A stretch of 64,000 nucleotides of DNA from a bacterium (GTDB taxonomy: Bacteria > NPL-UPA2 > JAUVJM01), in NCBI GenBank assembly GCA_030606215.1, contig JAUWGW010000007.1, forward strand, positions 1,615-65,614, written 5' to 3'. The notes below the pieces were generated by a model that searched no databases, was not told the DNA's origin, and saw nothing but the letters and a program-made list of their open reading frames with translations. Both the position numbers and the translations under genes were made by a program. Of the stretch, positions 25,606-59,574 are shown piece after piece (positions within the stretch are counted from its first letter, which is position 1; each line of letters begins with the position of its first letter).

Positions 25606-26599
25606 TCATAGGAGTAGCCGCATTCATCAGAAGAATTGCAAATGAAACTCCTTCAGGATAACCTGCATACAGACGGATTATAGCGGTGAGGAACCCGCAT
25701 CCGAGTCCGAAGATAATTTTCCCTTCGCCAGTCATTGGGGATGTTACCATATCAGTAGCCATGAAAAATGCTCCGAGAATTGCTCCTCCTGAAAAAATGT
25801 GAAAAAGAACATTTCCGTGGAAAGGTTTGCTTGCTCCAGGAATCCAGAGGAGCCATGCAAAAACTGCTAAACTCCCGAGGAAACTTAAAGGAATATGCCA
25901 GCTAATTATACCCTTTACGAGGAGAAAGATTGCTCCAATAATGAGGAGCAAAGCGGCAGTTTCTCCAATGCATCCCCCAATATTACCTGTAAATAGTCTA
26001 AGTAAAGTATCCGAAGAATGCAAATCATTGAGGTGCTGAGAAGCTAATACTTTTACATTTTCCGCTGCATTTGGGTCAGAAAGCGTACGGTTTGCATCAA
26101 GCCATGCGGTTAGAGGAGTTGCTGACGTAATTCCATCTATTGAAATAATTCCAGCTCTCGGGGTTGCCCATCCTGTCGTCATATATCTACTGTAGGAAAG
26201 AAGAAGAAAAACCCGTCCACCGAGTGCAGGATTGAATATATTATGCCCAAGCCCTCCAAATGTCTGTTTCACAACACTGATAGCAAAGGCTGAGCCAAGA
26301 GCAGGCAGCCATAACGGTATATCCTGCGGTAGATTCAACGCAAGGAGTAAACCTGTAAGAAAAGCGCTCCCATCAGAAATTGCAACTGGCTTCTTCCTTA
26401 ACCATAAAATAATTGCTTCGGTGATGATAGCTGAAAGTATACTTACGCCGATAATTTGAAGCACCTTAACTCCAAAGAAATAAACTGCTCCGACTATAGC
26501 CGGAAGGAGTGCCAGAGACACTGACCACATAATCTTATTAACTGTTACCCCGGAACTCAAATGCGGGGCAGGGGATACAATGAACTTCTGCTCTCTCAC
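25565..26599 (-). CDS. rnfD: Rnf complex subunit D
   Basis: NqrB/RnfD-family polytopic protein, with the conserved Thr near the C-terminus (..DMVTSP..). Confidence 0.8.
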   Translation of the reverse strand: MREQKFIVSPAPHLSSGVTVNKIMWSVSLALLPAIVGAVYFFGVKVLQIIGVSILSAIITEAIILWLRKKPVAISDGSAFLTGLLLALNLPQDIPLWLPALGSAFAISVVKQTFGGLGHNIFNPALGGRVFLLLSYSRYMTTGWATPRAGIISIDGITSATPLTAWLDANRTLSDPNAAENVKVLASQHLNDLHSSDTLLRLFTGNIGGCIGETAALLLIIGAIFLLVKGIISWHIPLSFLGSLAVFAWLLWIPGASKPFHGNVLFHIFSGGAILGAFFMATDMVTSPMTGEGKIIFGLGCGFLTAIIRLYAGYPEGVSFAILLMNAATPMIDRYAKPRRYGNA

Positions 26600-26721: not shown

Positions 26722-27741
26722 ATGAATAAACTGAGGCATATAACATCACTCTCCAGAGTTTTTCTAAACTATAAAAGAGGGAAAACTTGCCTCCGCTCAC
26801 TTCCAATCAGACTCTGGATAGAAACATCAAGTATCTGCAACTTGAGGTGTGTTATGTGTTTGAACAGAGCTCTTCCCAAGAGTGAGAAAGGACTTATGGA
26901 TTTTGGTTTATTCAGAAAAATTATAGATGAGGCAAAATCTTATGTCTATGACGTTTACCTGCATCATCGCGGCGAATCGTTAATTCATCCGGAGTTTCCA
27001 GAGATGATTGAGTATGCTAAGAAATCAGGTCTCAGAGTGAAGTTCCACACAAATGGAACACTTATGACCCCGGAGCTTTCGCTAAAAATACTTGAGGCAG
27101 GTCCTGACCTTGTTTCCTTCTCAGTAGATGGATTTACGAAGGAAGTTTATGAAAAGATCAGAGTGGGTGCAAATTTTGTTGGAACAGTTAATAATATTTC
27201 TTATTTTCTAAAATTAAAAAGGGAGAAGGGTTTAAATAAACCATATACGATAATTGAGGAGATTGAGTTTCCTGAGGTTATTGCTTCTTCTTATGAAGAT
27301 AGGAAGAAGTTTACGGAATATTTCAGGAAACTGGGGCTTGATGAAATAATCTTTAAAAAACTTTACAACTGGGCAGGTTACCTTGGCGAACCGAGTGGTG
27401 AGAGAACATATACAACGTGCACATTTTTGTGGTATTCCTGCGTGATTTTCTGGGATGGAACTGTTTCACCATGCCCGCAGGATTATTACGGGAAGATAAA
27501 GCTCGGGAATATCAAACATAATTCTCTGAGAGAGATATGGAATGGTACAGAGTATGTATCGCTCAGAAAACAGATGCTGAGGGATGTTGAAAAGCTTATC
27601 CCCTGTAATAAATGCGACAGACTCTGCAGGAAGAAAATAGCAGGCATCCCTTTCCAATATCTTATCTCCTACCTGAATGATAACATCATTGGTTACGGGA
27701 AACTGAGGAAAATATTCGGCTCCTATGAGAGAAATGAGTAG
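26722..27741 (+). CDS. Radical SAM protein with C-terminal SPASM-like Cys-rich domain
   Basis: CNLRCVMC (CxxxCxxC). Downstream cysteine clusters (..SPCPQDYYG.., CNKCDRLC). Confidence 0.75.
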   Translation: MNKLRHITSLSRVFLNYKRGKTCLRSLPIRLWIETSSICNLRCVMCLNRALPKSEKGLMDFGLFRKIIDEAKSYVYDVYLHHRGESLIHPEFPEMIEYAKKSGLRVKFHTNGTLMTPELSLKILEAGPDLVSFSVDGFTKEVYEKIRVGANFVGTVNNISYFLKLKREKGLNKPYTIIEEIEFPEVIASSYEDRKKFTEYFRKLGLDEIIFKKLYNWAGYLGEPSGERTYTTCTFLWYSCVIFWDGTVSPCPQDYYGKIKLGNIKHNSLREIWNGTEYVSLRKQMLRDVEKLIPCNKCDRLCRKKIAGIPFQYLISYLNDNIIGYGKLRKIFGSYERNE

Positions 27742-28453
27742 AAAAGTTAAATCAGTGTTGAAACAGCAGAAGATAAAAATGATTCTTTCATACATCGGCG
27801 ATACTTCAGAAAAAAAATGTCTTGATATCGGAAGTGGCAGTGGAATTATCAGTCTTATCCTTCGGGAGAATGGTGGTGATTGGGCAAGCGCTGAGACGGA
27901 AGGAGAAGGCATGGATTCTATCAGGAAGGCAGTTGGAGAAAATGTTTATAAAATAGATGGTCAGTCTACTCCTTTTGGAGAAAGAAGTTTTGATATAGTT
28001 GTAATAGTTGATTTTCTTGAACACATTGATACTGATAGAGAATTTGTCGTAGAACTTTACCGGATAATGAAATATGGAGGGATTCTCATCATAAATGTGC
28101 CGCATCTCAGGAGATGTGCGCCCATCCCGGCGCTTCGTAATCTGATAGGACTAACCGATGAGAAACATGGGCATGTGCGCCCGGGGTATACACTTACGAT
28201 GCTAAAGAATTTGCTTGGTAAGGAATTTGAGATAGTGAGACACTCAGTGTATGTAAAGTTTTTTTCTGAACTCATTGAAACTGTAATTAATTTTGCGGGT
28301 AAAGGTGAGAAGAGGGAAGAGGTAACTGAAAAAGGACTTACGTTCAGGCTATATTCAATAATATATCCTTTCCTTTGCTTAATTTCAAAACTTGATTATC
28401 TCTTTTTTTTCACAAGAGGCGCGCGTTTGATTGTAGAAGCAAGGAAATGCTAG
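27725..28453 (+). CDS. Class I SAM-dependent methyltransferase
   Basis: LDIGSGSGII motif I. Acidic motif II. Confidence 0.7.
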   Translation: MREMSRKVKSVLKQQKIKMILSYIGDTSEKKCLDIGSGSGIISLILRENGGDWASAETEGEGMDSIRKAVGENVYKIDGQSTPFGERSFDIVVIVDFLEHIDTDREFVVELYRIMKYGGILIINVPHLRRCAPIPALRNLIGLTDEKHGHVRPGYTLTMLKNLLGKEFEIVRHSVYVKFFSELIETVINFAGKGEKREEVTEKGLTFRLYSIIYPFLCLISKLDYLFFFTRGARLIVEARKC

Positions 28454-29379
28454 CCCTTTTTCTTATAATACATTACTGTTTTTTCAAATCCTTCTTCAAG
28501 TGTATGGTCTGGCTTCCAGTTAATTTCTTGCCCGGCTTTTCCCGCATCGAGTGATATGCGTTCTACTTCTCCCGTTTTTGCATCTGCATACAGAGGTGGT
28601 TTATTGAAACCGATAATCCTTTTCAGCAATTTAAAAAGTTCAACGACTGAAGTTTCTCTACCGGTACCGAGATTGTAAATTTCCCCGTTTCCTTTTTCCA
28701 TACAGAGGATATTTGCAGAAGCCACGTCTTCTACATACACATAATCCCTTGTTTGTTTTCCTGTGCCAAATATTGTAGGGGATTCCCCCTGGAGCATTTT
28801 ACCGGTAAAGATAGCTACTACACCTGCTTCACCATGTGGATTTTGTCTTGGACCGTAGACATTTGCGTAGCGCAGGACTGTATATTTCAATCCTGCGTTA
28901 TGCGAGTAAAGGTAGAGATAATGTTCCACAGCATGTTTTGAAACTCCGTAAGGCGATAGTGGATTAACGGGATATGTTTCATCTACAGGGAGAGAGTCCG
29001 GCTCTCCATAAATTGCTCCTCCAGTAGATATATAGATAAATTTTTTCACCCCATTTGCTAAAGCTTCTTCTATCAGGTTTATACTGCCGATGACATTTGA
29101 CTTCAGGTCAAAAATTGGGTTACTTACTGATTTGCGGACATCAATTTGAGCGGCATGATGACTTACATAATCAGGTTTTTCGACCTCAAAAATTTCCTTC
29201 ACTTTTTCTCTATCACAGATATCTGCAAGATAGAATTTTGCATCCGGATTGATGTTCTCCTTGAGTCCTGTTGAAAGGTTATCCAAGACCACCACACTGT
29301 ACCCTTCCTTCAAAAGTCTGTCTACAACATTTGAACCTATGAAACCTGCTCCGCCTGTCACCAGCACCTTTTTAGTCAT
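28450..29379 (-). CDS. NAD-dependent nucleotide-sugar epimerase (GalE-like)
   Basis: VTGGAGFIGSN, YxxxK (YGVSK). Confidence 0.8.
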   Translation of the reverse strand: MTKKVLVTGGAGFIGSNVVDRLLKEGYSVVVLDNLSTGLKENINPDAKFYLADICDREKVKEIFEVEKPDYVSHHAAQIDVRKSVSNPIFDLKSNVIGSINLIEEALANGVKKFIYISTGGAIYGEPDSLPVDETYPVNPLSPYGVSKHAVEHYLYLYSHNAGLKYTVLRYANVYGPRQNPHGEAGVVAIFTGKMLQGESPTIFGTGKQTRDYVYVEDVASANILCMEKGNGEIYNLGTGRETSVVELFKLLKRIIGFNKPPLYADAKTGEVERISLDAGKAGQEINWKPDHTLEEGFEKTVMYYKKKG

Positions 29380-29392
29380 AATTTTTCCCTCC

Positions 29393-30463
29393 TCATAACC
29401 ATGGGCTGAGGTAAGATTTTAGCCTTTCTTCCATCTTTTCTTTACTGAAGTATTTCAGTCTTTTTCCCTGTTTCCTGATAACTTTTTCCCTCAAGTTTTT
29501 TCCATTGAGCAGTAAATCTGCCATCTCTGCAATTTCTGCAAAATTTTTCTTTTTAACAAGAATTCCAGCATCTCCGAGAGTTTGAGGAACAGCAGCCCCT
29601 TTATATGCCATAATCGGTATTTCAAAATGCATTGCTTCAAGAAGTGGGAGACAAAAACCTTCATGCTCACTCATACAAATGAAAATATCAGCCAGACTAT
29701 AATAGGCTATTAAATCGTCAAAGTTAACATGCCCGAGTAGATATACAGTCTTCAAACCGAGCTGAAGTGTAAGAGACCTCAAATAATCAAAATACATTTC
29801 TGTGCCTGCGTATGAGCCGATGAGAAACAGTCTTGAATCAGGGTTGATAAACTTGTTGTAATAGTTGAAGACAAGAATTACATCCTCAAACTTCTTGTTC
29901 GGGACGAAACGACCTACGAATATAAAATGCTTGATATGAGACTGGTTATATACTGCTGTTGTATATGGATTTGGGCGCCTGGCGAAGAGTTGCCTGTCCA
30001 TGGTTAACGGAAGAACATCTGTATTCTCAAAACCCATGTCAACCAGCTCCTGGCGATTGTAGTCTGAATCTGCGAGGGAGAGCTCTGGAATATGGGCAAA
30101 AGAACGCAATTCCTTCCTTCCTTCTTCCAGTTCCTGTGCAATTCTATCATTTACCACCCTTAGATATCTTGCGGGGGTGATGTTGTGGTAGATAAGGATT
30201 TTTCTATCCGGAATAGAGCAAAAATACTCATTTACGGGTGAAGCTGTTGAGAAATGGAGTATTGTCAGATTCTCCTTTGAACTGCGCTCCTTGTGAAGGT
30301 GAAAATCGAAGCATTCTCTTCTCACTCGTGGATTTATATGTCTTGAGACTGAGTAGATTTCCGATGTAAAGCCCCAGGACCTGAGAATTTTCTGAATCAA
30401 TTTTGCCTGGATGCTGATTGCATCCCCGTAACTCATACCTGCAACAAGCTGATGTATTTCCAT
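29393..30463 (-). CDS. Glycosyltransferase family 4 (GT-B); start at MEIHQ.., the longer ORF overlaps the upstream GT
   Basis: EGFCLPLLEAM motif of the GT4/GT1 C-terminal domain. Confidence 0.8.
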   Translation of the reverse strand: MEIHQLVAGMSYGDAISIQAKLIQKILRSWGFTSEIYSVSRHINPRVRRECFDFHLHKERSSKENLTILHFSTASPVNEYFCSIPDRKILIYHNITPARYLRVVNDRIAQELEEGRKELRSFAHIPELSLADSDYNRQELVDMGFENTDVLPLTMDRQLFARRPNPYTTAVYNQSHIKHFIFVGRFVPNKKFEDVILVFNYYNKFINPDSRLFLIGSYAGTEMYFDYLRSLTLQLGLKTVYLLGHVNFDDLIAYYSLADIFICMSEHEGFCLPLLEAMHFEIPIMAYKGAAVPQTLGDAGILVKKKNFAEIAEMADLLLNGKNLREKVIRKQGKRLKYFSKEKMEERLKSYLSPWL

Positions 30464-30464
30464 T

Positions 30465-31631
30465 TTAAAACTTTTCCAGTGCGTTCTTGAACCTTTCAAT
30501 AACTTTTTCCCAGCTATAATTTTCCTTAACATATTTTTTCCCATTGATGCCCATTTTAAGTCTCGCATCAGGATTATTGAGAAAAAAGTTTATACATTCC
30601 TCAAACTCAAAATAGGTATCAAAATAAAGACCTCCATTACTTTTCTGGCAGTGGAATTGTGTAACGGCACAGCTTGCATTGACAAGAACAGGGACTCCGG
30701 CAAGCCATGATTCCATTATTGTAATTGAAAGGCTTTCATTAACTGAAGGTTGACACAGAAAAGTTGCAGAGGCATGTGCGGCGTATTTGTCCTCTATTGA
30801 AACATAACCCAGATCTATTATATCCTGAGAATCTCCTGAGATTGCCACATCTCCGCTCCCGATAAGGACAAGCTTAAGTTTATTTCTGTTATATCTTTTA
30901 TACATATTGAAGTAGTTGATAAGAAGCGGCGTATTTTTTCCTCCTTCTCTTCTCCCGGCATATAGACAGAAATCATCTTTAATATCATACCTCCTTCTGA
31001 ACCGTTCAGCCGAAGCGTCTTTCCTTTCGTCAAAACCAAGAGCAACGATTGCAATTTTTCTCTCGCTGAGATTATATAACTTTTTCCCCAGTTCTCTCTC
31101 AGGAGGGGTGCTGAACATAATACCTCTGAATCTTTGAAACATATCTTTGAAAATTTCAAGGTAAGCATATACTTCATCGTGAAGGGTTGGTATTAGGAGA
31201 GATTTTTCAGGGCACACTTTTGAACCATTGATTGTAGTCCCGAACATGTATGGTATGAAGATAAAATAGTCATAATCACCACAATTTCTTTCAATGTACG
31301 AATACATAGAACTGCTATTAACACTTTCCTTCGCCCAGGTCAACTGGTCTTCATATGAAACTTTCTCCTTGGCAATAATCCTGTTCTGTATCTTGAGGAA
31401 TGTGATTGTATTTCGCTCATCAACTTTAAATCTTCTTACCGTTATACTGTTAATCTCTTCCTTGCCCGGAGGATAGTAGTTTTCCCAGCCAAAATGGTCC
31501 CTTGCGCATGTTGTGAGAATCTCAACGGAAAAGTTTGCCTCTTTCAAACGCTCTGCAAGCCATTCAATATGAATTGCGGCTCCCCCTGCCGCATCAATTC
31601 CGTACCTCGGACATATGAAAGCAATTCTCAC
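30465..31631 (-). CDS. Glycosyltransferase family 4 (GT-B)
   Basis: ESLSITIMESWLAGVPV motif. Confidence 0.8.
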   Translation of the reverse strand: MRIAFICPRYGIDAAGGAAIHIEWLAERLKEANFSVEILTTCARDHFGWENYYPPGKEEINSITVRRFKVDERNTITFLKIQNRIIAKEKVSYEDQLTWAKESVNSSSMYSYIERNCGDYDYFIFIPYMFGTTINGSKVCPEKSLLIPTLHDEVYAYLEIFKDMFQRFRGIMFSTPPERELGKKLYNLSERKIAIVALGFDERKDASAERFRRRYDIKDDFCLYAGRREGGKNTPLLINYFNMYKRYNRNKLKLVLIGSGDVAISGDSQDIIDLGYVSIEDKYAAHASATFLCQPSVNESLSITIMESWLAGVPVLVNASCAVTQFHCQKSNGGLYFDTYFEFEECINFFLNNPDARLKMGINGKKYVKENYSWEKVIERFKNALEKF

Positions 31632-32104
31632 TGCCTTTCCTTTCGCTTCAAAATAGAAATTTCTTTCTCAAGCTCCACTATCCTGTCATATAATCCTTTG
31701 ACAAGTTGGACGATATGTCTGTTGAAATCAATCTGTTGGTTGAAAACACCCCTCGTATGAAACCTCAGAAACCGCCTGATAAATTCTTTCACTGCGAGCA
31801 CAATATGTCCGAGTATGGGACGGTTCAGGAACGGTGGGATACCGAATTTATAATGTTCTATATCTATGTTGCAGAGGACCTCGGCTGTCTTGATATAGTG
31901 TCTCGTGAAATCTGCGTGTTCAGGTGTATCACCAATTTTCAGTTTCTCTGCTTCGGCAAGTTTTTCGCTGGATAGAATTCCTTCTCTTTTCTTCTTTTCA
32001 ATATTCGCGCGAATTTCCTCCATTAACTCCTCAACATTTATGTCAGTATCCTTTATCTCAAAGGTCTCTTCCATCGTATTTATACCTCCAATTCCCATCT
32101 GCAT
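31628..32104 (-). CDS. Hypothetical coiled-coil protein downstream of wzt
   Basis: ORF with operon context only. No recognisable domain. Confidence 0.35.
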   Translation of the reverse strand: MQMGIGGINTMEETFEIKDTDINVEELMEEIRANIEKKKREGILSSEKLAEAEKLKIGDTPEHADFTRHYIKTAEVLCNIDIEHYKFGIPPFLNRPILGHIVLAVKEFIRRFLRFHTRGVFNQQIDFNRHIVQLVKGLYDRIVELEKEISILKRKERQ

Positions 32105-33261
32105 GGTAATTTAAGAAAACCATCTTCCTCGCGGAGATTTTCCACTTCTATCTGATGTGTGAAATCAAGGTGGTGATACTGTATTCTGTGGTCCTGTGAG
32201 TGGAGAGAAAAATTGAAGAAGAAAGCCCCTTTGAAAAGGGTAAGGCGCTCGATTGTAAGTTTTATTTTTCCCTCACCCTCAATGTGGTCTATAGGATAGT
32301 TTTCAAGTTTGGTGTTCGTCCCGAAGAAGTTTTTGCCATCCTGGCCATGGATAGAAATGCCAAAGACCGGGGAATCAACTCGCTTGGGTGCGAGGTAACT
32401 TATCTCCATAATCACAGGCTGCCCTGTGAAAAAGCGTTTTTCTTCTTTGCCGCCGCTTCTTAGAAAACGCACACCTGTAATAAAAGCTTCTTTTGTTCCC
32501 CATTCTCTTGGTCTTAAACGTTCATCTCTCTCCTGAACCATTTTCCTGTACAATCTCAGAACGTCTCTTGGTCTGCCTTCCTCCCTGACATGTCCCTGCT
32601 CAAGAAGAATTACGCGACTGCAGACTTCTTCAACAAGTTCAAGAGCGTGTGACACGAAGAGGATTGTTTTTCCTCTTTTCTGAAAATCTTCTATCCTTCT
32701 GAGACATTTCTTCTGAAAATGTTCGTCTCCGACAGCAAGCACTTCATCAATCAATAATATGTCGGGGTCAACTTCAACTGCAATTGCAAAGCCAAGCCTG
32801 ACATACATACCGGAAGAGAAATGTTTCACAGGCATGTTTATAAACTTTTCAAGCTCGGAAAATTCGACTATTGCCTTATACCTTTCATCCATCTCTTTTT
32901 TCGAAAAACCGAGTATTGACCCGTTGAGATAGATATTCTCCCGCCCGCTCAAATCTCCGTGAAAACCAGCTCCGAGTTCAAGGAGTGTTGCAACGGAACC
33001 CTGGACTTTTACCTCTCCTGAGGTCGGTTTCAATATCCCGGCGATAATTCCAAGCAGTGTGCTTTTGCCCGAACCATTCTCTCCTATAACGCCGACAGTT
33101 TCTCCCTTCTGAATTTCAAAACTGACATCCTCAAGAGCGTGAAAGGCTTTGAAAGGTTCCCTCCTTTTCAGCCAGTCCATTATTGCCCCTTTGAAAGTTG
33201 GTTCTTTCCCCCGCTGAATAAGATAGTTTTTTGAAACGCCTTTAATACTTATAACGATCAT
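32080..33261 (-). CDS. wzt: Polysaccharide (O-antigen/teichoic-type) ABC exporter ATP-binding protein with C-terminal substrate-binding extension
   Basis: Walker A (GENGSGKST), ABC signature (LSGGM-like FSSGM), Walker B (LLIDE). ~150 aa C-terminal extra domain. Confidence 0.8.
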   Translation of the reverse strand: MIVISIKGVSKNYLIQRGKEPTFKGAIMDWLKRREPFKAFHALEDVSFEIQKGETVGVIGENGSGKSTLLGIIAGILKPTSGEVKVQGSVATLLELGAGFHGDLSGRENIYLNGSILGFSKKEMDERYKAIVEFSELEKFINMPVKHFSSGMYVRLGFAIAVEVDPDILLIDEVLAVGDEHFQKKCLRRIEDFQKRGKTILFVSHALELVEEVCSRVILLEQGHVREEGRPRDVLRLYRKMVQERDERLRPREWGTKEAFITGVRFLRSGGKEEKRFFTGQPVIMEISYLAPKRVDSPVFGISIHGQDGKNFFGTNTKLENYPIDHIEGEGKIKLTIERLTLFKGAFFFNFSLHSQDHRIQYHHLDFTHQIEVENLREEDGFLKLPCRWELEV

Positions 33262-33279
33262 TATTCTGCGCTCCGCATT

Positions 33280-34089
33280 TCAAAGTTGATCCACAATTAT
33301 TCCTTCCACCTTAATCAAAAAGCGATATCCAGCTATAAGTACTGCTATTGAGATTACAAGTGGTATATATATAAGTTGAGGGGGAGGGAAGTTACCGTGA
33401 TAAAGAATGCTTTGATAACTTACAATTATACATGCCATCGGATTAAGGAAATACAGTAAACGCAGATGCTCCGGGACAACAAGTGTGTATGGATAGATGA
33501 CAGGCGTGAGGAAAAAGCCGGCGAACAGAATAACCTGCAGCATATGTTCCACATCACGGAATAGGACATTCAAGGAGCTGATAAAGAAGGATAACCCGCA
33601 TGCAAGCATAAGTTCGATAAGAATCAGAAGCGGGAGCATTAGGAGACAGATTCCGGAGGGATTTTCCCATCCGGAAGGGATTTTCCACATTATGAGCAGA
33701 GTGAAAACCACTACAAGTGAAAGGATAAAGTTCACGAGGTTAGTCAGCACGGCTGAGACTGGCAAAATAATTCTTGGGAAATAAACTTTCTTTACGAGAC
33801 TGACATTCCCTACGAAGGAAGTTGCCGAGTCGCTGATTGAGCCGGCAAAGAAGTTCCATGAAAAAAGACCAACTACCAAATATGCTGCGTAATTCTCTAT
33901 ACCTGCCTTCCGCCATCCTGTGAAAACACTTGAGAAGACAGCCCAGTAAACCAGGGTCATAAGAAGTGGATTGAGAAGCGACCAGAGAAAGCCCAGGGAA
34001 GAACTTTTGTATCTGACCTTGAGATGTCTTGTAACAAGATTTTTTACAAGTTCACGCCGCTTTAATAATTCATGCCACTGTCCAGGCAT
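33280..34089 (-). CDS. wzm: ABC-2 type polysaccharide exporter permease
   Basis: 6-TM ABC-2 permease immediately upstream of wzt. Confidence 0.7.
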   Translation of the reverse strand: MPGQWHELLKRRELVKNLVTRHLKVRYKSSSLGFLWSLLNPLLMTLVYWAVFSSVFTGWRKAGIENYAAYLVVGLFSWNFFAGSISDSATSFVGNVSLVKKVYFPRIILPVSAVLTNLVNFILSLVVVFTLLIMWKIPSGWENPSGICLLMLPLLILIELMLACGLSFFISSLNVLFRDVEHMLQVILFAGFFLTPVIYPYTLVVPEHLRLLYFLNPMACIIVSYQSILYHGNFPPPQLIYIPLVISIAVLIAGYRFLIKVEGIIVDQL

Positions 34090-35081
34090 ATTTCCACCTT
34101 TTCCATAACTTCAGATACTCCAATCTCTTTCATACATTTGATACTCTTGCATTTTTTTCGCCAGCAGCCGGAGCATGGCATTTTCTTCCATACCACAAAA
34201 TTTCTCTCCCCATAGGGACCGTTACGCGCGGGGTCCGTTGGGCCATATAATCCTATTACCCTTTTACCGAGAGCAGCTGCCAGATGTAAGGGGCCTGTAT
34301 CTGAACCGATAAAAAGTTCACATTTGTCAAGTAAAGCAATCAGTTGAGAAAGGTTCATACCGTTTGCAATGACTATATCTTCTCTGCGGAATTTCTCCGC
34401 AGGTTTCTCTTCACCAGGTCCTGCAGTAATCACAATCGTAGTATCAGCAAACTTCTTAACGATTTCCCGGGAAAGGTGTGCATAATTCTCAATCGGCCAT
34501 TTCTTCGTCTCCCACGTGACACCTGGATGCATTATTACTATTCTCTTATTATAAACATTTCTTGATTTCAGGAAATCATCTATATATCTTTTTGCAGACT
34601 CCTCAACCGGGACCTTAAATAATATATCCCCTGCATCTGCTTCCAGCTCCCTGGCAAAGCCCAGGTTTCGTTCAATGATGTGAGAGCCCTCTTCGGTAAC
34701 CTTCCGGTTTGTGAAAAATGTGCTTATTGCCTCAACCCTGAAACTTCCTCTTTTGAAACCCATCCGCCATCGGCAGCCGCTGAGAAATGTGACAATACCC
34801 CCCTTGAGATTTCCCTGTAAATCAATAATTATATCATACTTCTTACTTCTTATTTTTCCAATGAATTTTATGAAGGAAAGAAAGTTTTTGAAAACCCCTT
34901 CTCTTTCAAAGACAATTATTTCATCCACAGAAGGATGATTCTTAATTAAACCTGAAAATCTTTTCTCAATCGCCCAGCCAATATGAGTATCCGGATATTT
35001 TCTCCGCAATATATTCACAAGTGGCAGAGTATGGATAACATCTCCCAGAGAACTAAGCTTTAATATAAGAATGCTCTTCAC
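34062..35081 (-). CDS. Glycosyltransferase family 9 (LPS heptosyltransferase)
   Basis: N-terminus ILILKLSSLGDVIHTLP typical of the GT9 WaaC/WaaF family. Confidence 0.8.
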   Translation of the reverse strand: MKSILILKLSSLGDVIHTLPLVNILRRKYPDTHIGWAIEKRFSGLIKNHPSVDEIIVFEREGVFKNFLSFIKFIGKIRSKKYDIIIDLQGNLKGGIVTFLSGCRWRMGFKRGSFRVEAISTFFTNRKVTEEGSHIIERNLGFARELEADAGDILFKVPVEESAKRYIDDFLKSRNVYNKRIVIMHPGVTWETKKWPIENYAHLSREIVKKFADTTIVITAGPGEEKPAEKFRREDIVIANGMNLSQLIALLDKCELFIGSDTGPLHLAAALGKRVIGLYGPTDPARNGPYGERNFVVWKKMPCSGCWRKKCKSIKCMKEIGVSEVMEKVEICLDSGMNY

Positions 35082-36235
35082 TGAATATTTGCCTTCAAAT
35101 TCTTGTTTATAAGAAGTGCGAGCCCCATCATAATATATACCATCATCACTACTTCAGAATCCCCGAAGTTAAATTCAACAAGGCCATTTATGAGAAAACC
35201 GATAAATGCGGAGAAAATACCAAGCATGAGAGCTTTCTCATAAGAATTTTTATCTTTAATCCTGTGAAACGTGTGGAATGATAATTTGATAAAGACAATC
35301 ATCCACCAGAGAAATGCTATAAACCCGATAGGTCCCATCTCTGCAAGTATTTGCAGAGGTGTACTGTGGAGGTGATCACGCCTGTGTTCAATCCCAGAGT
35401 TATAGTGATACATAACACTGCCAACATTATCTATCCCAACTCCCATTGGATGGTCTCTCAATATTGATGGTGTAATCTCCCACATTGCAAGTCTCCCACC
35501 CCGCACCGGTGAAAACTCATCCTTCAGATTCATAAGCCTGTCTTTCGCTGGCTGGAAAAGCGCGAGAATTGCCACTGCGGCACAAATTACAGTTAAAATC
35601 ATTTTCCTGGACCTAATCCATCCCTGAATACCGAGTACAAACATGAGTGATATCCAGGAACCGCGTTTGAAATTGAGGATTTCAGCGGCAATCATAAGCA
35701 TGAGAGCAATTGACAGGAGCACTTTTATCTTCCTTTCTTCCCGGTAAAGCAGGATTGCCGTTGTAATTCCAATAATAATGAGAAGCTGGCCTGCCTCACT
35801 CATACTTCCAGCCAGCACAGGGTCAGAGCCCTGGGTGATTTTTGATAGGCGGTTAACTATCGTGAAAAGTGATAAAATTGAAGTCCCGCAAATAAGAGTT
35901 CTCACAAGCGTCCTGATTTTGTGAGATGCTACATTATTCAGAATGAGGTAGATAATGAGAATAAGACCATAAGTCCTGAAACCAATCAGACTGTTTTTAA
36001 CATCTACGCCCCAGAATGAACTAAGAAAAGCAACCACTACAAAAGCTAAAACCGGCAGATCCAACGGGGTTTTCTGCCAGTGAAATTCTTTACCTAAAAT
36101 CATCTTCACAATCCACCCAATTAAGCCAAGAACAAATACTCCCTCTGAAACAGCTATTGATAGAGGCAAAGTAAAAGCAAACAGGATGAGCGATATATAT
36201 ATATAATTGTCAAAGTGTCTTGTCAATCTTTTCAT
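35078..36235 (-). CDS. O-antigen ligase/polymerase-family (Wzy_C-like) membrane protein
   Basis: ~12 TM helices with a periplasmic loop; ligase-like by cluster context. Confidence 0.55.
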   Translation of the reverse strand: MKRLTRHFDNYIYISLILFAFTLPLSIAVSEGVFVLGLIGWIVKMILGKEFHWQKTPLDLPVLAFVVVAFLSSFWGVDVKNSLIGFRTYGLILIIYLILNNVASHKIRTLVRTLICGTSILSLFTIVNRLSKITQGSDPVLAGSMSEAGQLLIIIGITTAILLYREERKIKVLLSIALMLMIAAEILNFKRGSWISLMFVLGIQGWIRSRKMILTVICAAVAILALFQPAKDRLMNLKDEFSPVRGGRLAMWEITPSILRDHPMGVGIDNVGSVMYHYNSGIEHRRDHLHSTPLQILAEMGPIGFIAFLWWMIVFIKLSFHTFHRIKDKNSYEKALMLGIFSAFIGFLINGLVEFNFGDSEVVMMVYIMMGLALLINKNLKANIQ

Positions 36236-37004
36236 TACTTAATCCTGTCTTTTGTAGTTCCCACAGCTTGGAATATTTCAAGAAAACATAAAATGAAGAA
36301 GCGGCTGCAATTATCAATCCCGGGATACCATCTTTGAATCCACCCCTGATTGCATATCCTGTGATAAACCTTATAATAGGGCGAAGGAGAATCTGGAAGG
36401 GATGAAATACTTTTCCATGTTTTGCCATTTCCTCCGCTGAGATTGAAGAAAATTTATTCAGAGTTTGCAACTGGTCAAAAATGTTCTCATAGGTAAAATG
36501 CCACAGGTCTTGCTCCAAATATTTAACCCGCCCTCCGGATACCTCAACTTTCTCATGCGGTTCAACACCTCCTATACGCCCTTTCACCCTTCTGAACAGG
36601 CGAAGTTTGTAGTCAGGATACCATTCACCATGCTTGATCCATCTTCCGAGATAATAGACGAGCCTTGGGAAATAAAATCCGTCATACTCTCCGCTATCTT
36701 CAGAGAGTCCCTTTTTTATTTCCTCAATCAATCCGGGCGACAACCTTTCATCAGCATCAATCAATAAGACCCAGTCATATTTTGTACTGCTTAGCGCAAA
36801 ACTTTTCTGGTCAATCTGTCCTTTCCACTCTCGCTGCATTATCTTATCAGTGAATTCTCTGCATATGTTTACGGTCTTATCACTGCTGAATGAATCCACA
36901 ATAATGATTTCATCAACCCATGCAACTGATTTGAGACAGTCACGGATATTTTTCTCCTCATTATATGTAACAATACATACTGAAACGGAGAATTTACCTG
37001 CCAT
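36210..37004 (-). CDS. Glycosyltransferase family 2
   Basis: VSVCIVTYNEE.. and DxD (IDADE) motifs. Confidence 0.75.
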   Translation of the reverse strand: MAGKFSVSVCIVTYNEEKNIRDCLKSVAWVDEIIIVDSFSSDKTVNICREFTDKIMQREWKGQIDQKSFALSSTKYDWVLLIDADERLSPGLIEEIKKGLSEDSGEYDGFYFPRLVYYLGRWIKHGEWYPDYKLRLFRRVKGRIGGVEPHEKVEVSGGRVKYLEQDLWHFTYENIFDQLQTLNKFSSISAEEMAKHGKVFHPFQILLRPIIRFITGYAIRGGFKDGIPGLIIAAASSFYVFLKYSKLWELQKTGLSNEKIDKTL

Positions 37005-38040
37005 CTCTTAATTTTTCCTCCGCTGAGAGAAGAACCTCTTCCACCTGAATTTCTTTAAAACACCTGTAATCTCCGCGCGGGCATTTTCTGGAAAAACATG
37101 GACTGCAATCAACTCTCTTGTAGAAAACAGTATGCTCTTCACCTCGTGGACCTGTTCTTGCAGGGTCAGTGGAGCCAAATATTGCCACAACAGGGGTTTT
37201 AACTGCAGTAGCTATGTGCATAGTCCCGCTGTCATTTGTAATGAGAAGTTTGCACATACTGAGTAATGCTCCGAGCTGACGCAGGCTTGTCTTTCCCGCA
37301 AGATTGACACACTTCTCTTTCATATATCTACAAATCTCATCTGTGATTTTCTCTTCCTTAGATGTCCCAAAAAGTAAAATTTTTACAGATTGTTTTTTAA
37401 TCAGTTCATCTCCCACATCTGCAAAATTTCTCGGGAACCATCTTTTCGCAGGTCCGAATGTTGCCCCTGGATTAATTCCAATCAATCTGTCAACGCTTTT
37501 GATTTTGTTTTCTTCAAGAAGTCTCTTAGCTTCTTCCTTTTCTTGTTGAGTTACAACCCATACAAGTTCATGATTTACGGATTCCCTTTTTGAATCATGA
37601 AAGTCCTCAATAAGATGAAGGTAGTAGTTTACCTGATGTTCCCTGAGTAACTTCCTGGTAGGTTCCAGAGCGCAAGTCAACAGGAATCCTCTTGCATCTC
37701 TTCTATAGCCGAGAGTTTCTTCCGCTCCTGAAATGCGAAAAAAAAGGGCCGATGAAAAGGAATTTGGAAAAAGGATTGCCCTGTCATATTTGTCTTTTCT
37801 GAGCTTAAAAGCTTTTAACCAGTAGAATAAATTATTCTTCTCGGGTAATATGATTATTTCATCAACAGCAGGATTGTGGAGGAAACAATCACTCACGCTC
37901 CTTCTGGCGAGAAGTGAGATATGTGCTCCGGGATACTTTTCTCTCAACGCAGTCAGCGCAGGAGTTGAGAGAACAGCATCTCCAATCCAGTTAGGCGCTC
38001 TTACAATTATCTTATTTTCTATCTTTGAATTGCATCTCAT
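36994..38040 (-). CDS. Glycosyltransferase family 9 (LPS heptosyltransferase II-like)
   Basis: IIVRAPNWIGDAVLSTPAL N-terminus. C-terminal GT-B nucleotide-binding region. Confidence 0.8.
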   Translation of the reverse strand: MRCNSKIENKIIVRAPNWIGDAVLSTPALTALREKYPGAHISLLARRSVSDCFLHNPAVDEIIILPEKNNLFYWLKAFKLRKDKYDRAILFPNSFSSALFFRISGAEETLGYRRDARGFLLTCALEPTRKLLREHQVNYYLHLIEDFHDSKRESVNHELVWVVTQQEKEEAKRLLEENKIKSVDRLIGINPGATFGPAKRWFPRNFADVGDELIKKQSVKILLFGTSKEEKITDEICRYMKEKCVNLAGKTSLRQLGALLSMCKLLITNDSGTMHIATAVKTPVVAIFGSTDPARTGPRGEEHTVFYKRVDCSPCFSRKCPRGDYRCFKEIQVEEVLLSAEEKLRDGR

Positions 38041-39787
38041 ATAGCCGCTTGTACACTTCCCCTCGTTTAATCAACTCTTCATGAATGCCAGATTCCACAA
38101 TTCTGTCCTTGTCAAGGACTATGATTTTGTTTGCATGCTTTATGGTGGAAAGTCTGTGCGCAATTACAAATACTGTTCTATCCTTCATAAGATTATTTAT
38201 TGCTCCCTGTATCATCTCTTCAGATTCGGAATCCAGCGATGATGTTGCCTCATCAAGTATCAAAATCGCAGGGTCTTTAAGCACAGCTCGCGCAATAGTA
38301 ATTCTCTGTCGTTCGCCTCCAGAGAGGAGAACGCCACGGTCTCCGATGACTGTATCATATCCGTTTGACAGGTTCATTACAAAGCTATGGGCATTTGCCG
38401 CTTTAGCTGCTCGGATAATTTCTTCCTCTGAAATATTCGCATTCCCGTAGCAGATATTGTTTGCCACAGTGTCATTGAATAAAATGACCTCTTGAGTCAC
38501 TATGCCAATCTGAGCTCTCAGGGATTTGATTGTTACCTCTTTTATGTCCTTCCCGTCAATAGTTATTGAGCCCGAGAGACAATCGTAGAATCGTGGAATG
38601 AGATTCACGAGAGTTGTTTTCCCAACACCACTTGTCCCAACGATGGCTATAATCTCTCCTACTCTGGCTTTGAGGTTTATGTCAGTAAGCACATTTCTCC
38701 CTTTTGTATATGCAAAAGATACATTGTCGAAGCTTATTTCCCCTCCTAATCGTGGAACATCCAAAGCCCCTTCACATTCTACGACCTCAGGTTGAATATC
38801 AAGTATTTCAAAAATCCTCATTGATGCGGCTTTTGCCTGCTGCATCATATTGTTAACTCTGGTCAGATTCTTGCAAGGTGCATACAGGCAGAAAACTGCC
38901 CCGAGGAATGTGACGAAGTCACCAGATGTCATAGAACCAGCTCCTGGCATGACCCTGTAGCCGGCATAGAGCAGTATGGCTGCTATTCCAACTGCGGCTA
39001 AAAATTCCATCACCGGGGATGAAACTAAATAAATACGCGCAGACTTCATCGTTATCTGGAAGAATTTCTTAGTTTCCCCAAAGAATCTCTTCCTCTCATA
39101 CTCTTCCATCCCGAAAGCCTGAACAACCCTGATTCCTGAAAGAGTTTCCTGAAGTATAGAAGTGATATCGGCAATTCTCACCTGAGCTTCTCCGGTAAAT
39201 TTTCTTACCTTCTCACCAAGTTTCTTAATCAAAACTGCAACTGGTGGGAATATGACCAGAGACACAATCGCAAGACCGGTATTTAGATAGAAAATAAAAA
39301 TGAGAAATCCTAAGATTGTTACAGGTTCACGAATAAGACTTGCCAAGGATTCTGTTATGCTCTGCTGAATGACATTGATATCGTTGGTGAATCTTGATAT
39401 TAACTCCCCGGTTTTTCGTCGTGTGAAGAAACCGGGGCTCAAACCTGTAACATTGTGGTATAGGTCATTCCGCAGGTCATTTACCACTTTCTGTGCAACG
39501 AAGTGCATGAGATAAGTCTGCCCGTACCCTGCAAGCCCTTTCATGGAGACTATTGCCAAAACGAAAATTGCAAGGAATTTGACGCAAACAGTCCTTTCAG
39601 CTGTGAACTCTGCTTTCAGGAATGGGATTTCAACAGTGACTATTTTCTCTGGAGTGAATATCCTGTCGATAATAGGTTTCAGCGTCCATATTGAAATGAC
39701 TGAAAAGAGAGCGAAGAAAATCATACAGATGAAAGCAAAAGCTAATTGCCGTTTATAACGACTTATATAACTGAAAAGCCTTTTCAA
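38012..39787 (-). CDS. msbA: Lipid A export ABC transporter, fused permease/ATPase
   Basis: 6-TM domain plus NBD with Walker A (GTSGVGKTT), signature LSGGERQR, Walker B ILILDEATS. Confidence 0.85.
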   Translation of the reverse strand: MKRLFSYISRYKRQLAFAFICMIFFALFSVISIWTLKPIIDRIFTPEKIVTVEIPFLKAEFTAERTVCVKFLAIFVLAIVSMKGLAGYGQTYLMHFVAQKVVNDLRNDLYHNVTGLSPGFFTRRKTGELISRFTNDINVIQQSITESLASLIREPVTILGFLIFIFYLNTGLAIVSLVIFPPVAVLIKKLGEKVRKFTGEAQVRIADITSILQETLSGIRVVQAFGMEEYERKRFFGETKKFFQITMKSARIYLVSSPVMEFLAAVGIAAILLYAGYRVMPGAGSMTSGDFVTFLGAVFCLYAPCKNLTRVNNMMQQAKAASMRIFEILDIQPEVVECEGALDVPRLGGEISFDNVSFAYTKGRNVLTDINLKARVGEIIAIVGTSGVGKTTLVNLIPRFYDCLSGSITIDGKDIKEVTIKSLRAQIGIVTQEVILFNDTVANNICYGNANISEEEIIRAAKAANAHSFVMNLSNGYDTVIGDRGVLLSGGERQRITIARAVLKDPAILILDEATSSLDSESEEMIQGAINNLMKDRTVFVIAHRLSTIKHANKIIVLDKDRIVESGIHEELIKRGEVYKRLYEMQFKDRK

Positions 39788-39810
39788 CTTTATTTCCCCG
39801 TGTCTTTCCC

Positions 39811-40704
39811 TCAGGCAGAGCAGAATTTACAAATCGGCACTTTGTCAAACTCTCCTCTCAGGTGAAACTGTCTTATTTCTTTTAGACACTTCCCCTTCCA
39901 TACATCTGCGATTGTGTTCTCACAGACATTCCCTAAAACGATCTGGCCATCATAATCGACACAGCATAAGGCGACTTCACCGTTCCAGAGAATTGTCAGC
40001 TTTGACCATAGACGAAAACATGGTAGTTTCCTAACAGCAGGAGATTTTTTGAAGTTGCGTAGATTTCCCCAATTATGGACTTTTCCTATTGAAACATTAT
40101 CAACCCTTCTTCTCCAGTAATGAAGAAATTTATTTTTTGCCTTGGTATCACTACTAAGATCTAAGCAGGAAATTGAAACTTGCGGCTTTTTAAAATGTTT
40201 CTTTTGTCTCATTTCCATGAATTCATTTATGTTTCTTTGTACTTCATCAAAGCTTAACCCACGCCGTGTAGTTTCATACAGGTTCTTGTCAATTCCGTCA
40301 AAGCTAATTTTCAACTTATCAAGTCCACTATTCAGAATTCTTTCAGCCATATCACCGGTTAGCAAAGATCCGTTCGTAAATATCTTGACCTCTGCGATAC
40401 CGAGCCTTTTGGCATGTTTTATCCGATCTGGCAGGTCATCTACAAGGAGCGCCTCACCAAAATTATGGAGATGAACTGAGTGAACTTTGTGCTTTGCGCA
40501 TTCGTTAACCACTTTTTCAAACAGTTCCCAGCTCATAATTCCTATTTTTCGTGTCATCCTGTCTCTTGTGCACATTGTGCAGTTCGAGTTGCATGCATTA
40601 GTTGTTTCAATCTCAACAGTGCGAGGGAATTTCCATATAGCGCTTGCCACTCCACCTGAAACAGTAAAAAACGTTTTTTCTAATAGAGGAAACTTATTAT
40701 GCAT
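39811..40704 (-). CDS. Radical SAM protein with SPASM-like C-terminal domain (paralog of 26722-27741)
   Basis: CNSNCTMC (CxxxCxxC). C-terminal clusters (CCVDYDGQ.., CKFCSA). Collinear motif similarity to the 26722 ORF. Confidence 0.75.
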   Translation of the reverse strand: MHNKFPLLEKTFFTVSGGVASAIWKFPRTVEIETTNACNSNCTMCTRDRMTRKIGIMSWELFEKVVNECAKHKVHSVHLHNFGEALLVDDLPDRIKHAKRLGIAEVKIFTNGSLLTGDMAERILNSGLDKLKISFDGIDKNLYETTRRGLSFDEVQRNINEFMEMRQKKHFKKPQVSISCLDLSSDTKAKNKFLHYWRRRVDNVSIGKVHNWGNLRNFKKSPAVRKLPCFRLWSKLTILWNGEVALCCVDYDGQIVLGNVCENTIADVWKGKCLKEIRQFHLRGEFDKVPICKFCSA

Positions 40705-40722
40705 ATTGTATATGATTCCGCG

Positions 40723-41583
40723 TTATTTCCCAAGTACAAACAGCATTTTATTGCCAAATTTCGTTTTGTCATAAAGAAAAGTCAGTAAGGGGTTGGGACT
40801 TCGGCTTAGAGTAGTCCAATACAGGATTTGCAGTCCTGCTGATGCTGCAAGTCTTCTGAAAGTCGCAGAGTTAAATTCATACAGATGTTCAGGCATTGAA
40901 AAATGGCACCAGGGATGCTTTTTTAGACGGTATCTGCTCAAAAAATTCTTAACTCTAATATCTATCCCTGCAACATTTGGCAGTTCCACAAAGATATATC
41001 CGTTACTTTTTATGAGACGGTAGAGGTAACGGAGTGTTCCCAGTGGGTCTGGCATGTGCTCAAGAACATGCCACAGAGTAACAATGTCAAACTGTCCAGC
41101 ATGAAAATTCATTTCTTCCAGTTTGCCTGCTCTGACATCTATATGCAGGGTTTCCTGCGCCCACTTTATTGTTTTCTGCGATATATCTATGCCTGTGGCT
41201 GAGAAACCAAGCCCGGCTGCTTCCTGGACAAAGAAGCCTAACCCGCACCCGACATCAAGCAGATTGCCCGAGGATTTATATCGCTGGACATATTTTAACC
41301 TGCGCTGGATTTGAAAGTACTGGTTGGTTTTCTTAAAACGGGTGAAGTCAAACTGAGCAAGGTCAAATTCCTTATACCATGCGTAGTCAAGATCGTTGTT
41401 TAGTTTCTCATAATCTTCCGGTGCTGGCGCCGGGTGGCGATAGAGCAGACCACAGTTACGGCATTGCATAAGGTTATTTATTTCCTGCCTGGCTATTTGA
41501 ATTGTATCACTTACCTTGCAAAGCGGGCACCGCCCAATGAGCTGGGTCATATCAGTTTCCAGCGTTGATGGAGCCAGAACCAC
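40723..41583 (-). CDS. Class I SAM-dependent methyltransferase with N-terminal zinc-ribbon
   Basis: CPLC..CRNC N-terminal ribbon. LLDVGCGLGFF motif I. Confidence 0.7.
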   Translation of the reverse strand: MVLAPSTLETDMTQLIGRCPLCKVSDTIQIARQEINNLMQCRNCGLLYRHPAPAPEDYEKLNNDLDYAWYKEFDLAQFDFTRFKKTNQYFQIQRRLKYVQRYKSSGNLLDVGCGLGFFVQEAAGLGFSATGIDISQKTIKWAQETLHIDVRAGKLEEMNFHAGQFDIVTLWHVLEHMPDPLGTLRYLYRLIKSNGYIFVELPNVAGIDIRVKNFLSRYRLKKHPWCHFSMPEHLYEFNSATFRRLAASAGLQILYWTTLSRSPNPLLTFLYDKTKFGNKMLFVLGK

Positions 41584-42437
41584 TGTGCAGGGAAGCGCCT
41601 GACATAGCTCTCGATAATCCTGGTTAGCCTGGCTGTATTCATATATATGTCTTCTTCTCTGTTGCCTGTAGAGGAAAGTTCAAGTACGGGTTCAATTATC
41701 ACCGCATGCTTATCACCCGGCTCCCGCAGTGAAAACATCGGGACAATGCCTGCTCCCGTCCTCATGGCAAGAACTACAGGACCTGTTGCAGTTCCTGCAG
41801 GATGATTGAAGAAGTCTACGAATACACCTCCCCGAAGTTCTCGCTGGTCACCGAGCATACACACAATTTCATTCTGTCGCAAGCGCTTTAATAATTCAGT
41901 TGTCGCTTTTTTTCTTGGTAGAGCGGGGACGACACCTATGCCGAGATGTTCAAGACAGGAATGGAAAATTTCAGCAATCTGTTCAACTTCAGGGTCACGC
42001 ATAATGAAACTGAAAGGGTATCCCTCAGCCGCAAGTCTTGCCCCTAACAAACCGAAATTCCCTAAATGAGCGCTAAAACCGATGACACCTTTACCCTTCT
42101 TCAGAGCAGATTCAAGATTTTCTTTCCCTTCCAATCTTATAAGCTTTCTTATCTCGCGGCGAGAGAATCGGATAGAACTTGTTGCCTCACATAATCCCTT
42201 CCCGAGATTTATATAAGTCTCGCGGGCAATTGCTGCGAGTTCTGACTGATTCATCCTGTTACCGAATGCAAGTTTCAAGTTATCCAGTGTAATTTTATGA
42301 TACCTTCCGGAAAGGAAATACGCGAGCTGCCCCAAAGATTTACCGGAGAGCTGTACTCCTCTCCATGGTAGGAGACCTATAATTTTCATCACGGAATGCA
42401 TAGCAAGAATTGAGGCGAGACGGTCAATTTTTCTCAT
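41547..42437 (-). CDS. lpxL: Lipid A biosynthesis (Kdo2-lipid IVA) secondary acyltransferase, LpxL/HtrB family
   Basis: LPLAT-superfamily architecture and HtrB-like N-terminus. Sits next to lpxK. Confidence 0.7.
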   Translation of the reverse strand: MRKIDRLASILAMHSVMKIIGLLPWRGVQLSGKSLGQLAYFLSGRYHKITLDNLKLAFGNRMNQSELAAIARETYINLGKGLCEATSSIRFSRREIRKLIRLEGKENLESALKKGKGVIGFSAHLGNFGLLGARLAAEGYPFSFIMRDPEVEQIAEIFHSCLEHLGIGVVPALPRKKATTELLKRLRQNEIVCMLGDQRELRGGVFVDFFNHPAGTATGPVVLAMRTGAGIVPMFSLREPGDKHAVIIEPVLELSSTGNREEDIYMNTARLTRIIESYVRRFPAQWFWLHQRWKLI

Positions 42438-59573: not shown

Positions 59574-59574
59574 T

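Follow-up and report, generated by a model that had tools for sequence, protein, structure and literature searches.

What do two radical S-adenosylmethionine (SAM) proteins, each encoded beside a methyltransferase, do among the lipopolysaccharide (LPS) genes of a bacterium? The question is raised by a stretch of 64,000 nucleotides from a genome of the GTDB lineage NPL-UPA2 (assembly GCA_030606215.1, contig JAUWGW010000007.1; hereafter the window), in which an earlier reading of the letters alone (hereafter the sequence-only reading) had proposed two paralogous pairs of a SPASM-type radical SAM enzyme and a methyltransferase, embedded as a duplicated cassette in an LPS core and lipid A cluster and serving an undescribed sugar or lipid modification. 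The four genes are as follows:

26722-27741, plus strand: rSAM1, 339 residues, BtrN-like Twitch radical SAM enzyme of the sister family of rSAM2
27725-28453, plus strand: MT1, 242 residues, class I SAM methyltransferase (Methyltransf_11, E 7e-14)
39811-40704, minus strand: rSAM2, 297 residues, BtrN-like Twitch radical SAM enzyme
40723-41583, minus strand: MT2, class I SAM methyltransferase with an N-terminal Cys4 zinc ribbon (Methyltransf_23, E 5e-27)

Both radical SAM proteins are read here, with moderate confidence, as BtrN-like Twitch enzymes that tailor the carbohydrates of envelope glycoconjugates and not peptides, with rSAM2 acting on an inner-core sugar, i.e., 3-deoxy-D-manno-oct-2-ulosonic acid (Kdo) or heptose. 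Membership in the radical SAM superfamily was evident from Pfam, where rSAM1 and rSAM2 exceeded the thresholds of Radical_SAM and SPASM (PF04055, 64 and 68 bits for the two proteins, cutoff 29.5), from a CX3CX2C motif invariant within each family (C39/C43/C46 in rSAM1, alignment A3 of 22 rSAM1-family sequences; C38/C42/C45 in rSAM2, alignment A1 of 34 rSAM2-family sequences), and from AlphaFold2 (AF2) models, which fit the radical SAM fold. The two proteins are homologous, as had been proposed: pairwise alignment gave 32% identity over about 294 residues (E 6e-49), comparison of the two family profiles with hhalign gave a probability of 100% (E 1e-63), and the motifs quoted as shared by both were all present in the translations. 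No NCBIfam model scored above its cutoff for rSAM1, rSAM2, MT1, or MT2, the best partial matches (tungsten-cofactor maturase, metalloenzyme maturase, and UbiG) covering generic domains only. Orthologues of rSAM1 with about 50% identity were found in Omnitrophota and Kiritimatiellia, those of rSAM2 with 40-46% identity in Planctomycetota, Desulfobacterota-type metagenome-assembled genomes (MAGs), Nitrospirota, and others, and rSAM2 was matched by 1,473 representative clusters at E ≤ 1e-30. Because each family has its own orthologues in other phyla, the duplication is ancient, separating two families, and not the product of local cassette copying.

The Pfam SPASM match would also suit maturases of a peptide or protein, i.e., of a peptide synthesised on the ribosome and then post-translationally modified (RiPP), an anaerobic sulfatase, or a metalloenzyme, lying beside LPS genes by chance; the best partial NCBIfam matches, TIGR04317 and TIGR04311, and the presence of the anaerobic sulfatase-maturating enzyme (anSME) among the fold matches point the same way. 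A SPASM domain was taken to have seven Cys in the arrangement CX9-15GX4C ... CX2CX5CX3C ... C and two auxiliary [4Fe-4S] clusters. Exactly four invariant C-terminal Cys were found in each family (C229, C247, C292, and C295 in the rSAM2 family; C233, C251, C295, and C298 in the rSAM1 family), the CX2CX5CX3C block having shrunk to CX2C in both. The truncated SPASM domain known as Twitch carries a single auxiliary cluster, ligated by four Cys in BtrN, an enzyme that performs a two-electron oxidation (PMC9012708). With four invariant Cys in BtrN register and a C-terminal domain that aligned to that of BtrN, rSAM1 and rSAM2 belong to the Twitch subfamily and not to the SPASM type named by the sequence-only reading, and a PF13186 score above threshold is as expected for such a truncated domain. 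Each is predicted to hold one fully Cys-ligated auxiliary [4Fe-4S] cluster beside the SAM-cleaving [4Fe-4S] cluster.

The suggested likeness to BtrN was borne out by profile and by fold. In profile searches against the PDB, BtrN was the best match of both families (E 9e-36 for rSAM2, 4.7e-21 for rSAM1) and was aligned over both domains, the next match being MoaA (1e-14). For both AF2 models (predicted local distance difference test, 89.5 for rSAM2 and 86.4 for rSAM1), Foldseek searches against the PDB returned BtrN (4M7T) first, followed by DesII, BlsE, SuiB, and anSME. The maturase models of NCBIfam, on the other hand, were matched far below their cutoffs (TIGR04317, 134 vs 380 bits; anSME model NF010321, 37.6 vs 441 bits), and the N-terminus leaves no RRE-sized domain, as about 30 residues precede the radical SAM core and a single helix precedes its motif, which begins near residue 38. 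For neither window protein was the eight-Cys SPASM domain or the sulfatase synteny of anSME found, nor the adjacent precursor gene and the usual N-terminal RRE/PqqD-like domain of a RiPP maturase. The flanking intergenic gaps of 18-122 bp are too small for a precursor gene, and no conserved small-ORF cluster (ORF, open reading frame) was seen among the neighbours of the radical SAM genes, where ORFs below 90 residues were not clustered. Of 89 loci, a single one had a sulfatase-family gene within 10 kb, and the conserved synteny with sulfatases that was to refute the proposed role was thus absent; the genomic company consists of glycan and LPS genes. Four conserved auxiliary Cys instead of the seven of SPASM and an adjacency to glycosyltransferase genes beyond chance, described in the following, further oppose a maturase that lies beside LPS genes by coincidence, which we consider very improbable, and maturation of peptides or sulfatases is essentially excluded.

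Conserved partners of the rSAM2 family were determined by a locus scan with a 14-sequence alignment (A2), one genome per species, in which the best 80 of 279 relatives were analysed. A gene of glycosyltransferase family 9 (GT9), the heptosyltransferase family, was located at most 300 bp from the rSAM2-family gene in 46 of the 80 loci and at most 3 kb away in 6 more, and this adjacency recurred in MAGs of Planctomycetota, 'Deltaproteobacteria'/Desulfobacterales, Nitrospiraceae, Auribacterota, and Verrucomicrobiota. A handful of GT9 genes is expected per genome, and the rate of chance adjacency should therefore be well under 1%. About 11 Planctomycetota loci that lack a GT9 neighbour had genes of the LPS-export permease LptF/LptG adjacent or no more than 5 kb away, a second radical SAM paralogue was present within 2.5 kb in 10 of the 80 loci, and a methyltransferase was found within 1.5 kb in 2. 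Three gene orders illustrate the arrangement:

L013: LpxK, GT9, radical SAM, LpxL
L072: LpxB, MsbA, ArnT-like, radical SAM, GT9, GT9
L023: radical SAM, GT9, radical SAM, GT9, GmhB-like HAD phosphatase, GT2, LpxL, Methyltransf_23 protein, GT4

The interleaved order of L023, with one Twitch radical SAM gene per heptosyltransferase gene, is shared by seven further loci of deltaproteobacterial MAGs (L011, L012, L014, L015, L017, L018, and L021) and is found at about positions 8000-12000 of the full-length loci. The conserved partner of the rSAM2 family is hence the GT9 heptosyltransferase, accompanied by LptF/G, LpxL, LpxK, and MsbA, and not a methyltransferase.

In the window itself, the neighbours named by the sequence-only reading (lpxK, lpxL, msbA, GT9, GT2/GT4, and wzm/wzt) were confirmed with Pfam and NCBIfam. 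All of the following lie on the minus strand and are listed in the direction of transcription:

42434-43504, minus strand: lpxK (Pfam LpxK, E 7e-81)
41547-42437, minus strand: lpxL (Lip_A_acyltrans, E 3e-50)
38012-39787, minus strand: msbA, lipid A flippase (ABC_membrane and ABC_tran; TIGR02203, 571 bits vs cutoff 602)
36994-38040, minus strand: GT9, heptosyltransferase II-like (TIGR02195, 226 bits, which passes the cutoff of 134.6)
36210-37004, minus strand: GT2 (Pfam)
35078-36235, minus strand: Wzy_C O-antigen ligase-family protein (Pfam)
34062-35081, minus strand: GT9, heptosyltransferase I-like (TIGR02193, 178 bits vs cutoff 185)
33280-34089, minus strand: wzm (Pfam)
32080-33261, minus strand: wzt (Pfam)
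31628-32104, minus strand: ORF of 158 residues between the wzt and GT4 genes, no Pfam match
29393-31631, minus strand: two GT4 genes (Pfam)
28450-29379, minus strand: GalE-like SDR (nearest NCBIfam model GalE, not HldD), convergent with MT1

With lpxK, lpxL, msbA, and heptosyltransferase genes present, this is a lipid A/inner-core cluster of LPS. The full order on the minus strand is lpxK, lpxL, MT2, rSAM2, msbA, GT9, GT2, ligase, GT9, wzm, wzt, the 158-residue ORF, GT4, GT4, and SDR, so that rSAM2 and MT2 sit inside a tightly packed, co-directional lipid A/core operon with msbA directly downstream of rSAM2. The claim that both pairs are embedded in the LPS cluster stood for this pair; rSAM1 and MT1 are found at the cluster edge, where they are encoded on the other strand, converge with the SDR gene, and lie downstream of a divergent rnf operon. 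A scan for promoters and terminators returned counts near the shuffled expectation.

The position of rSAM2 between lpxL and msbA would also suit an enzyme that alters the acyl chains of lipid A by radical C-C/C-H chemistry, like the lipid synthases GDGT-MAS and Tes, to which weak matches in the N-terminal core were obtained (GDGT-MAS, E 9e-9; NCBIfam Tes, E 3e-11, far below cutoff). These matches, however, cover the generic radical SAM core only, BtrN being a far better match over both domains, and the conserved partner of the family is a glycosyltransferase, with natural fusions to glycosyltransferases and a cytidylyltransferase and not to acyltransferases. Action on the acyl chains is therefore regarded as improbable.

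Natural fusion proteins carry the assignment to sugars further. Six of the 150 best rSAM2 representatives are long, and each of these scores better against the rSAM2 profile than against that of rSAM1:

P0308: N-domain of Kdo transferase fused to radical SAM (Pfam)
P0351: CTP_transf_3 cytidylyltransferase fused to radical SAM (weak Pfam match, E 2e-5)
P0315: GT2 fused to radical SAM (Pfam)
P0336: DUF362/ferredoxin fused to radical SAM (Pfam)
P0228 and P0254: radical SAM fused to a class I methyltransferase (Pfam)
Fusion loci L170 (4374-6713), L171 (2211-3728), and L172 (8001-9950): partners Kdo-transferase N-domain, CTP_transf_3, and zinc-ribbon methyltransferase

The loci of the fusion proteins are glycan clusters rich in genes of ulosonic acids (NeuB, CTP_transf_3, NeuC-like, and DegT). 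Taken together with the fusions to a Kdo transferase and a cytidylyltransferase, this places the rSAM2 family beside enzymes by which 2-keto-3-deoxy sugar acids are activated or transferred. In an LPS core operon, Kdo is the sugar of this kind, and it also serves heptosyltransferase I as acceptor. The methyltransferase fusions bear on the second gene of the pair, as residues 1-253 of MT2, zinc ribbon included, align with the C-terminal methyltransferase half of P0254 (E 5e-23). The coupling of radical SAM enzyme and methyltransferase that the sequence-only reading had put forward is thus not conserved across loci, and yet these fusions show that some lineages at least do couple rSAM2 to an MT2-type methyltransferase. 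The clusters of L170-L172 also hold PglD-like, Wzx, PMT_2, and B12-radical SAM genes, and L172 looks archaeal by a Pelota/eRF1-family gene at the contig edge.

Both methyltransferases are of class I, as had been read from the sequence, with Methyltransf_11/23/25 above cutoffs and the motifs 'LDIGSGSG' and 'LDVGCGLG'. MT1 overlaps the 3' end of rSAM1 by 17 nt. MT2, which lies between lpxL and rSAM2, bears the zinc ribbon in the form CxxC...CxxC (C19, C22, C41, and C44; weak Zn_ribbon_LapB match only), and its start is likely the ATG at 41550, giving a protein of 275 residues, the length of the gene call in L001. The pairing of a methyltransferase with each radical SAM gene was thus upheld, whereas the paralogy of the two pairs extends to the radical SAM members only: MT1 and MT2 share 26% identity over 122 residues (E 1e-6), and since this likeness is confined to the generic SAM-binding core, they are not a specific paralogous pair. 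With the radical SAM families anciently separate as well, duplication of a whole cassette is discarded as the origin of the two pairs. Domains of TylC3/NovU-type C-methyltransferases (Methyltransf_13 and Methyltransf_14) were absent from MT1 and MT2 at E ≤ 0.01. PDB matches of the two were considered as a clue to the substrate and set aside as uninformative, being generic (UbiG and uncharacterised methyltransferases).

From the observed homology, cluster-binding motifs, fold, synteny, and fusions, we infer the following substrate and reaction outcome for rSAM2. The 5'-deoxyadenosyl radical would attack an inner-core sugar, Kdo or heptose, and take a hydrogen from one of its carbinol carbons; the sugar may be presented either bound to lipid A or as a nucleotide-activated donor. 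The substrate radical could then be oxidised via the auxiliary cluster to give a keto sugar, as in BtrN, or a thiol could return a hydrogen from the opposite face to give the epimer. MT2 would then probably O- or C-methylate the same sugar. For rSAM1 and MT1, analogous chemistry is envisaged on another glycoconjugate, built by GT4, GT2, GT-C/DUF2079, and LPG_synthase_TM proteins.

The second of these routes leads to a different assignment, in which the enzymes are radical sugar epimerases and not dehydrogenases, with return of hydrogen from a Cys thiol, and could for example replace or supplement the SDR epimerase HldD in the synthesis of the heptose donor. The rSAM2 family carries the signature G-x4-C-C-x-D (with C-C-x-D at residues 247-250 of rSAM2), in which an extra Cys directly follows an auxiliary-cluster ligand in 142 of the 150 best representatives; BtrN lacks it and has C-F-E-D at the position of the doublet. 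In the radical SAM epimerases NeoN and EpeE/YydG, the hydrogen is donated by a Cys, EpeE is among the fold matches, hldD of E. coli shares an operon with GT9 genes, and the sole SDR of the locus is GalE-like and scores below the HldD cutoff. The rSAM1 family, however, has a single Cys here ('CPQD'), the closest relative BtrN is a dehydrogenase, HldD is independent of oxygen, which leaves no obvious pressure for its replacement, and hldD may lie elsewhere in a genome of which the window displays 64 kb. An epimerase role for both is therefore judged unlikely, while the near-universal extra Cys of the rSAM2 family keeps epimerisation as an option beside BtrN-like oxidation. A further candidate role, rSAM2 as a replacement of GnnA (UDP-GlcNAc 3-dehydrogenase, for GlcN3N lipid A), was set aside, as the partner is GT9 and not a DegT aminotransferase and a GnnA/GnnB-like pair is already present at 8999-11534.

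Returning to BtrN-like tailoring of envelope carbohydrates, the rSAM1 family was analysed in 80 metagenomic loci, with partners counted over the 50 that have at least 3 kb of flank. A glycan-type partner was found within 5 kb in 43 of the 50, with a GT4 as the conserved one, distributed as follows:

Specific GT4: 32 of 50 loci
Polyprenyl-phosphate-type GT2: 13 of 50 loci
GT-C/PMT_2 protein: 12 of 50 loci
B12-binding radical SAM protein: 9 of 50 loci
MT1-like methyltransferase within 5 kb: 4 of 50 loci

The pair of rSAM1 and MT1 is kept in the nearest relatives only (L090, L093, and L096; with an inserted gene in L092, L004, and L005), where its neighbours are a DUF2079-like membrane protein, a GT2, and an LPG_synthase_TM protein. 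Homologues of these neighbours in L004/L005 (E 7e-19, 2e-28, and 4e-14) are grouped elsewhere in the window:

56619-63082, plus strand: DUF2079 membrane protein (827 residues), ORF of 138 residues, GT2 (59575-60453), protein of 565 residues without Pfam match, and LPG_synthase_TM protein (62147-63082)

As homologues of this group flank rSAM1-MT1 in L004, L005, and L092, the arrangement suggests that rSAM1-MT1 and the 56619-63082 cluster are a split operon in the window genome, and rSAM1 and MT1 probably act in a system of lipid-linked glycosylation that is separate from the lipid A core.

Other genes of the window were recorded around these loci. The rnf genes upstream of rSAM1 (20264-26599, minus strand) comprise an RnfB-like protein, two Rnf-Nqr membrane subunits, an FMN-binding subunit, and RnfD, and are split at 21067-23727 by a PHP-domain protein, a UbiA-family prenyltransferase, and an SDR; RnfC was not seen in the stretch examined. 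Directly upstream of lpxK and on the same strand (43509-45819, minus strand) lie a methionine aminopeptidase, an NIL-ferredoxin protein, and an HcyBio gene, HcyBio being a sulfur-incorporating homocysteine biosynthesis, and this stretch is a mark of an anaerobic lifestyle. A sugar/cyclitol cluster at 408-14207 (plus strand) encodes a GFO/IDH/MocA oxidoreductase, an inositol-1-phosphate-synthase-like protein, a PfkB kinase, a split transketolase, a GH42, two URO-D-like proteins, a DegT aminotransferase followed by a second GFO/IDH/MocA, and an AraA-like protein, and could be a source of amino sugars for lipid A or core. CarB is encoded at 50688-53957 (plus strand), and its nearest named relatives, 79-84% identical, nearly all derive from Candidatus Omnitrophota/Omnitrophica MAGs, so that the window would most likely stem from an anaerobic member of that phylum.

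Several points weigh against a role of rSAM2 in the inner core and against the likeness to BtrN as a guide to its reaction. Pirellulales dominate the 80 rSAM2 loci, so that the counts are phylogenetically non-independent, and a methyltransferase partner is rare in both families (2/80 and 4/50 loci, see above). In the window, msbA stands between rSAM2 and the nearest GT9 gene. The link to Kdo consists of the GT9 adjacency and one example per fusion type, and a fusion seen once could be an artefact of assembly or frameshift. Identity to BtrN is 16-19%, and the chemistry may differ (dehydration, decarboxylation, or C-C bond formation). No cultured carrier of the gene with a known core structure was found.

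A broader proposal is put forward tentatively and with less confidence than the assignment to sugars as such: enzymes of the rSAM2 type would perform an oxygen-independent radical change of the Kdo/heptose inner core, giving a keto sugar, an epimer, or, with a methyltransferase, a methylated or branched sugar, and would occur widely in Planctomycetota, Desulfobacterota, Nitrospirota, and Omnitrophota. If true, these poorly cultured phyla harbour a major chemical variant of the supposedly conserved inner core of LPS. The inner core is the most conserved and an immunologically important part of LPS, and as the rSAM2 branch is tightly tied to genes of heptosyltransferases and LPS export in several phyla, its assembly is implied to include a step that has gone unrecognised. 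The function seems to be undescribed, as the sequence-only reading had supposed: no described role of radical SAM chemistry in LPS core or lipid A assembly was found, and among the papers searched, none was found that connects radical SAM enzymes to heptosyltransferases, lipid A/core genes, Kdo, or nonulosonic acids. A Geobacter paper that mentions both terms was discarded, as it lists unrelated genes. The radical SAM, GT9, and methyltransferase genes are concrete, testable candidates for new sugar-tailoring radical chemistry, and they advise caution with the automatic annotation of small 'radical SAM/SPASM' proteins as peptide maturases.

Among known systems, BtrN (2-deoxy-scyllo-inosamine dehydrogenase of the butirosin pathway; 4M7T) is the closest, sharing with rSAM1 and rSAM2 a small size (250-340 residues) built of a compact core and a Twitch domain, and acting on a carbohydrate-like small molecule and not on a peptide. 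The window enzymes are not BtrN orthologues in the sense of a DOIA dehydrogenase, given their low identity and their neighbours (lpxL, msbA, GT9, and GT4): unlike BtrN, they are encoded without 2-deoxystreptamine genes nearby and in a context of LPS core and glycolipid assembly, and aminoglycoside genes were absent from 169 related loci. They also differ by the extra Cys (CC-x-D) of the rSAM2 family and by a conserved C-terminal tail of about 40 residues in the rSAM1 family (GIPxQY..GY..G..ERN). DesII, BlsE, and the Twitch dehydrogenase SpeY perform radical chemistry at the carbinol carbons of sugars (deamination/oxidation, decarboxylation, and dehydrogenation) and are among the top fold matches; they belong, however, to antibiotic secondary metabolism with nucleotide-sugar or nucleoside substrates, and their profile matches to the window proteins are much weaker (E 1e-12 or worse). 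The SPASM maturases anSME, PqqE, AlbA, and SuiB share the core, the first SPASM half (C-x9-15-G-x4-C), and PF13186, but they bind two auxiliary clusters through seven or eight Cys, often carry an RRE, and act on peptides or proteins, whereas the window enzymes show four auxiliary Cys, lack an RRE, and are encoded without peptide or sulfatase genes nearby. For the rSAM1 family, a parallel is offered by the hopanoid proteins HpnI-HpnJ-HpnK-HpnL, which follow a logic of sugar attachment to a lipid, deacetylation, and radical rearrangement: rSAM1-family neighbourhoods likewise combine a GT2, a radical SAM protein (often with an extra B12-binding one), a deacetylase, and an LPG_synthase_TM protein, but they lack hopanoid genes, hold a Polysacc_deac_1 deacetylase instead of YdjC and a Twitch instead of a B12-binding radical SAM enzyme, and add GT-C and DUF2079 proteins. 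Set beside these systems, rSAM1 and rSAM2 are a variant, defined by genomic context, of the Twitch radical SAM enzymes that tailor carbohydrates.

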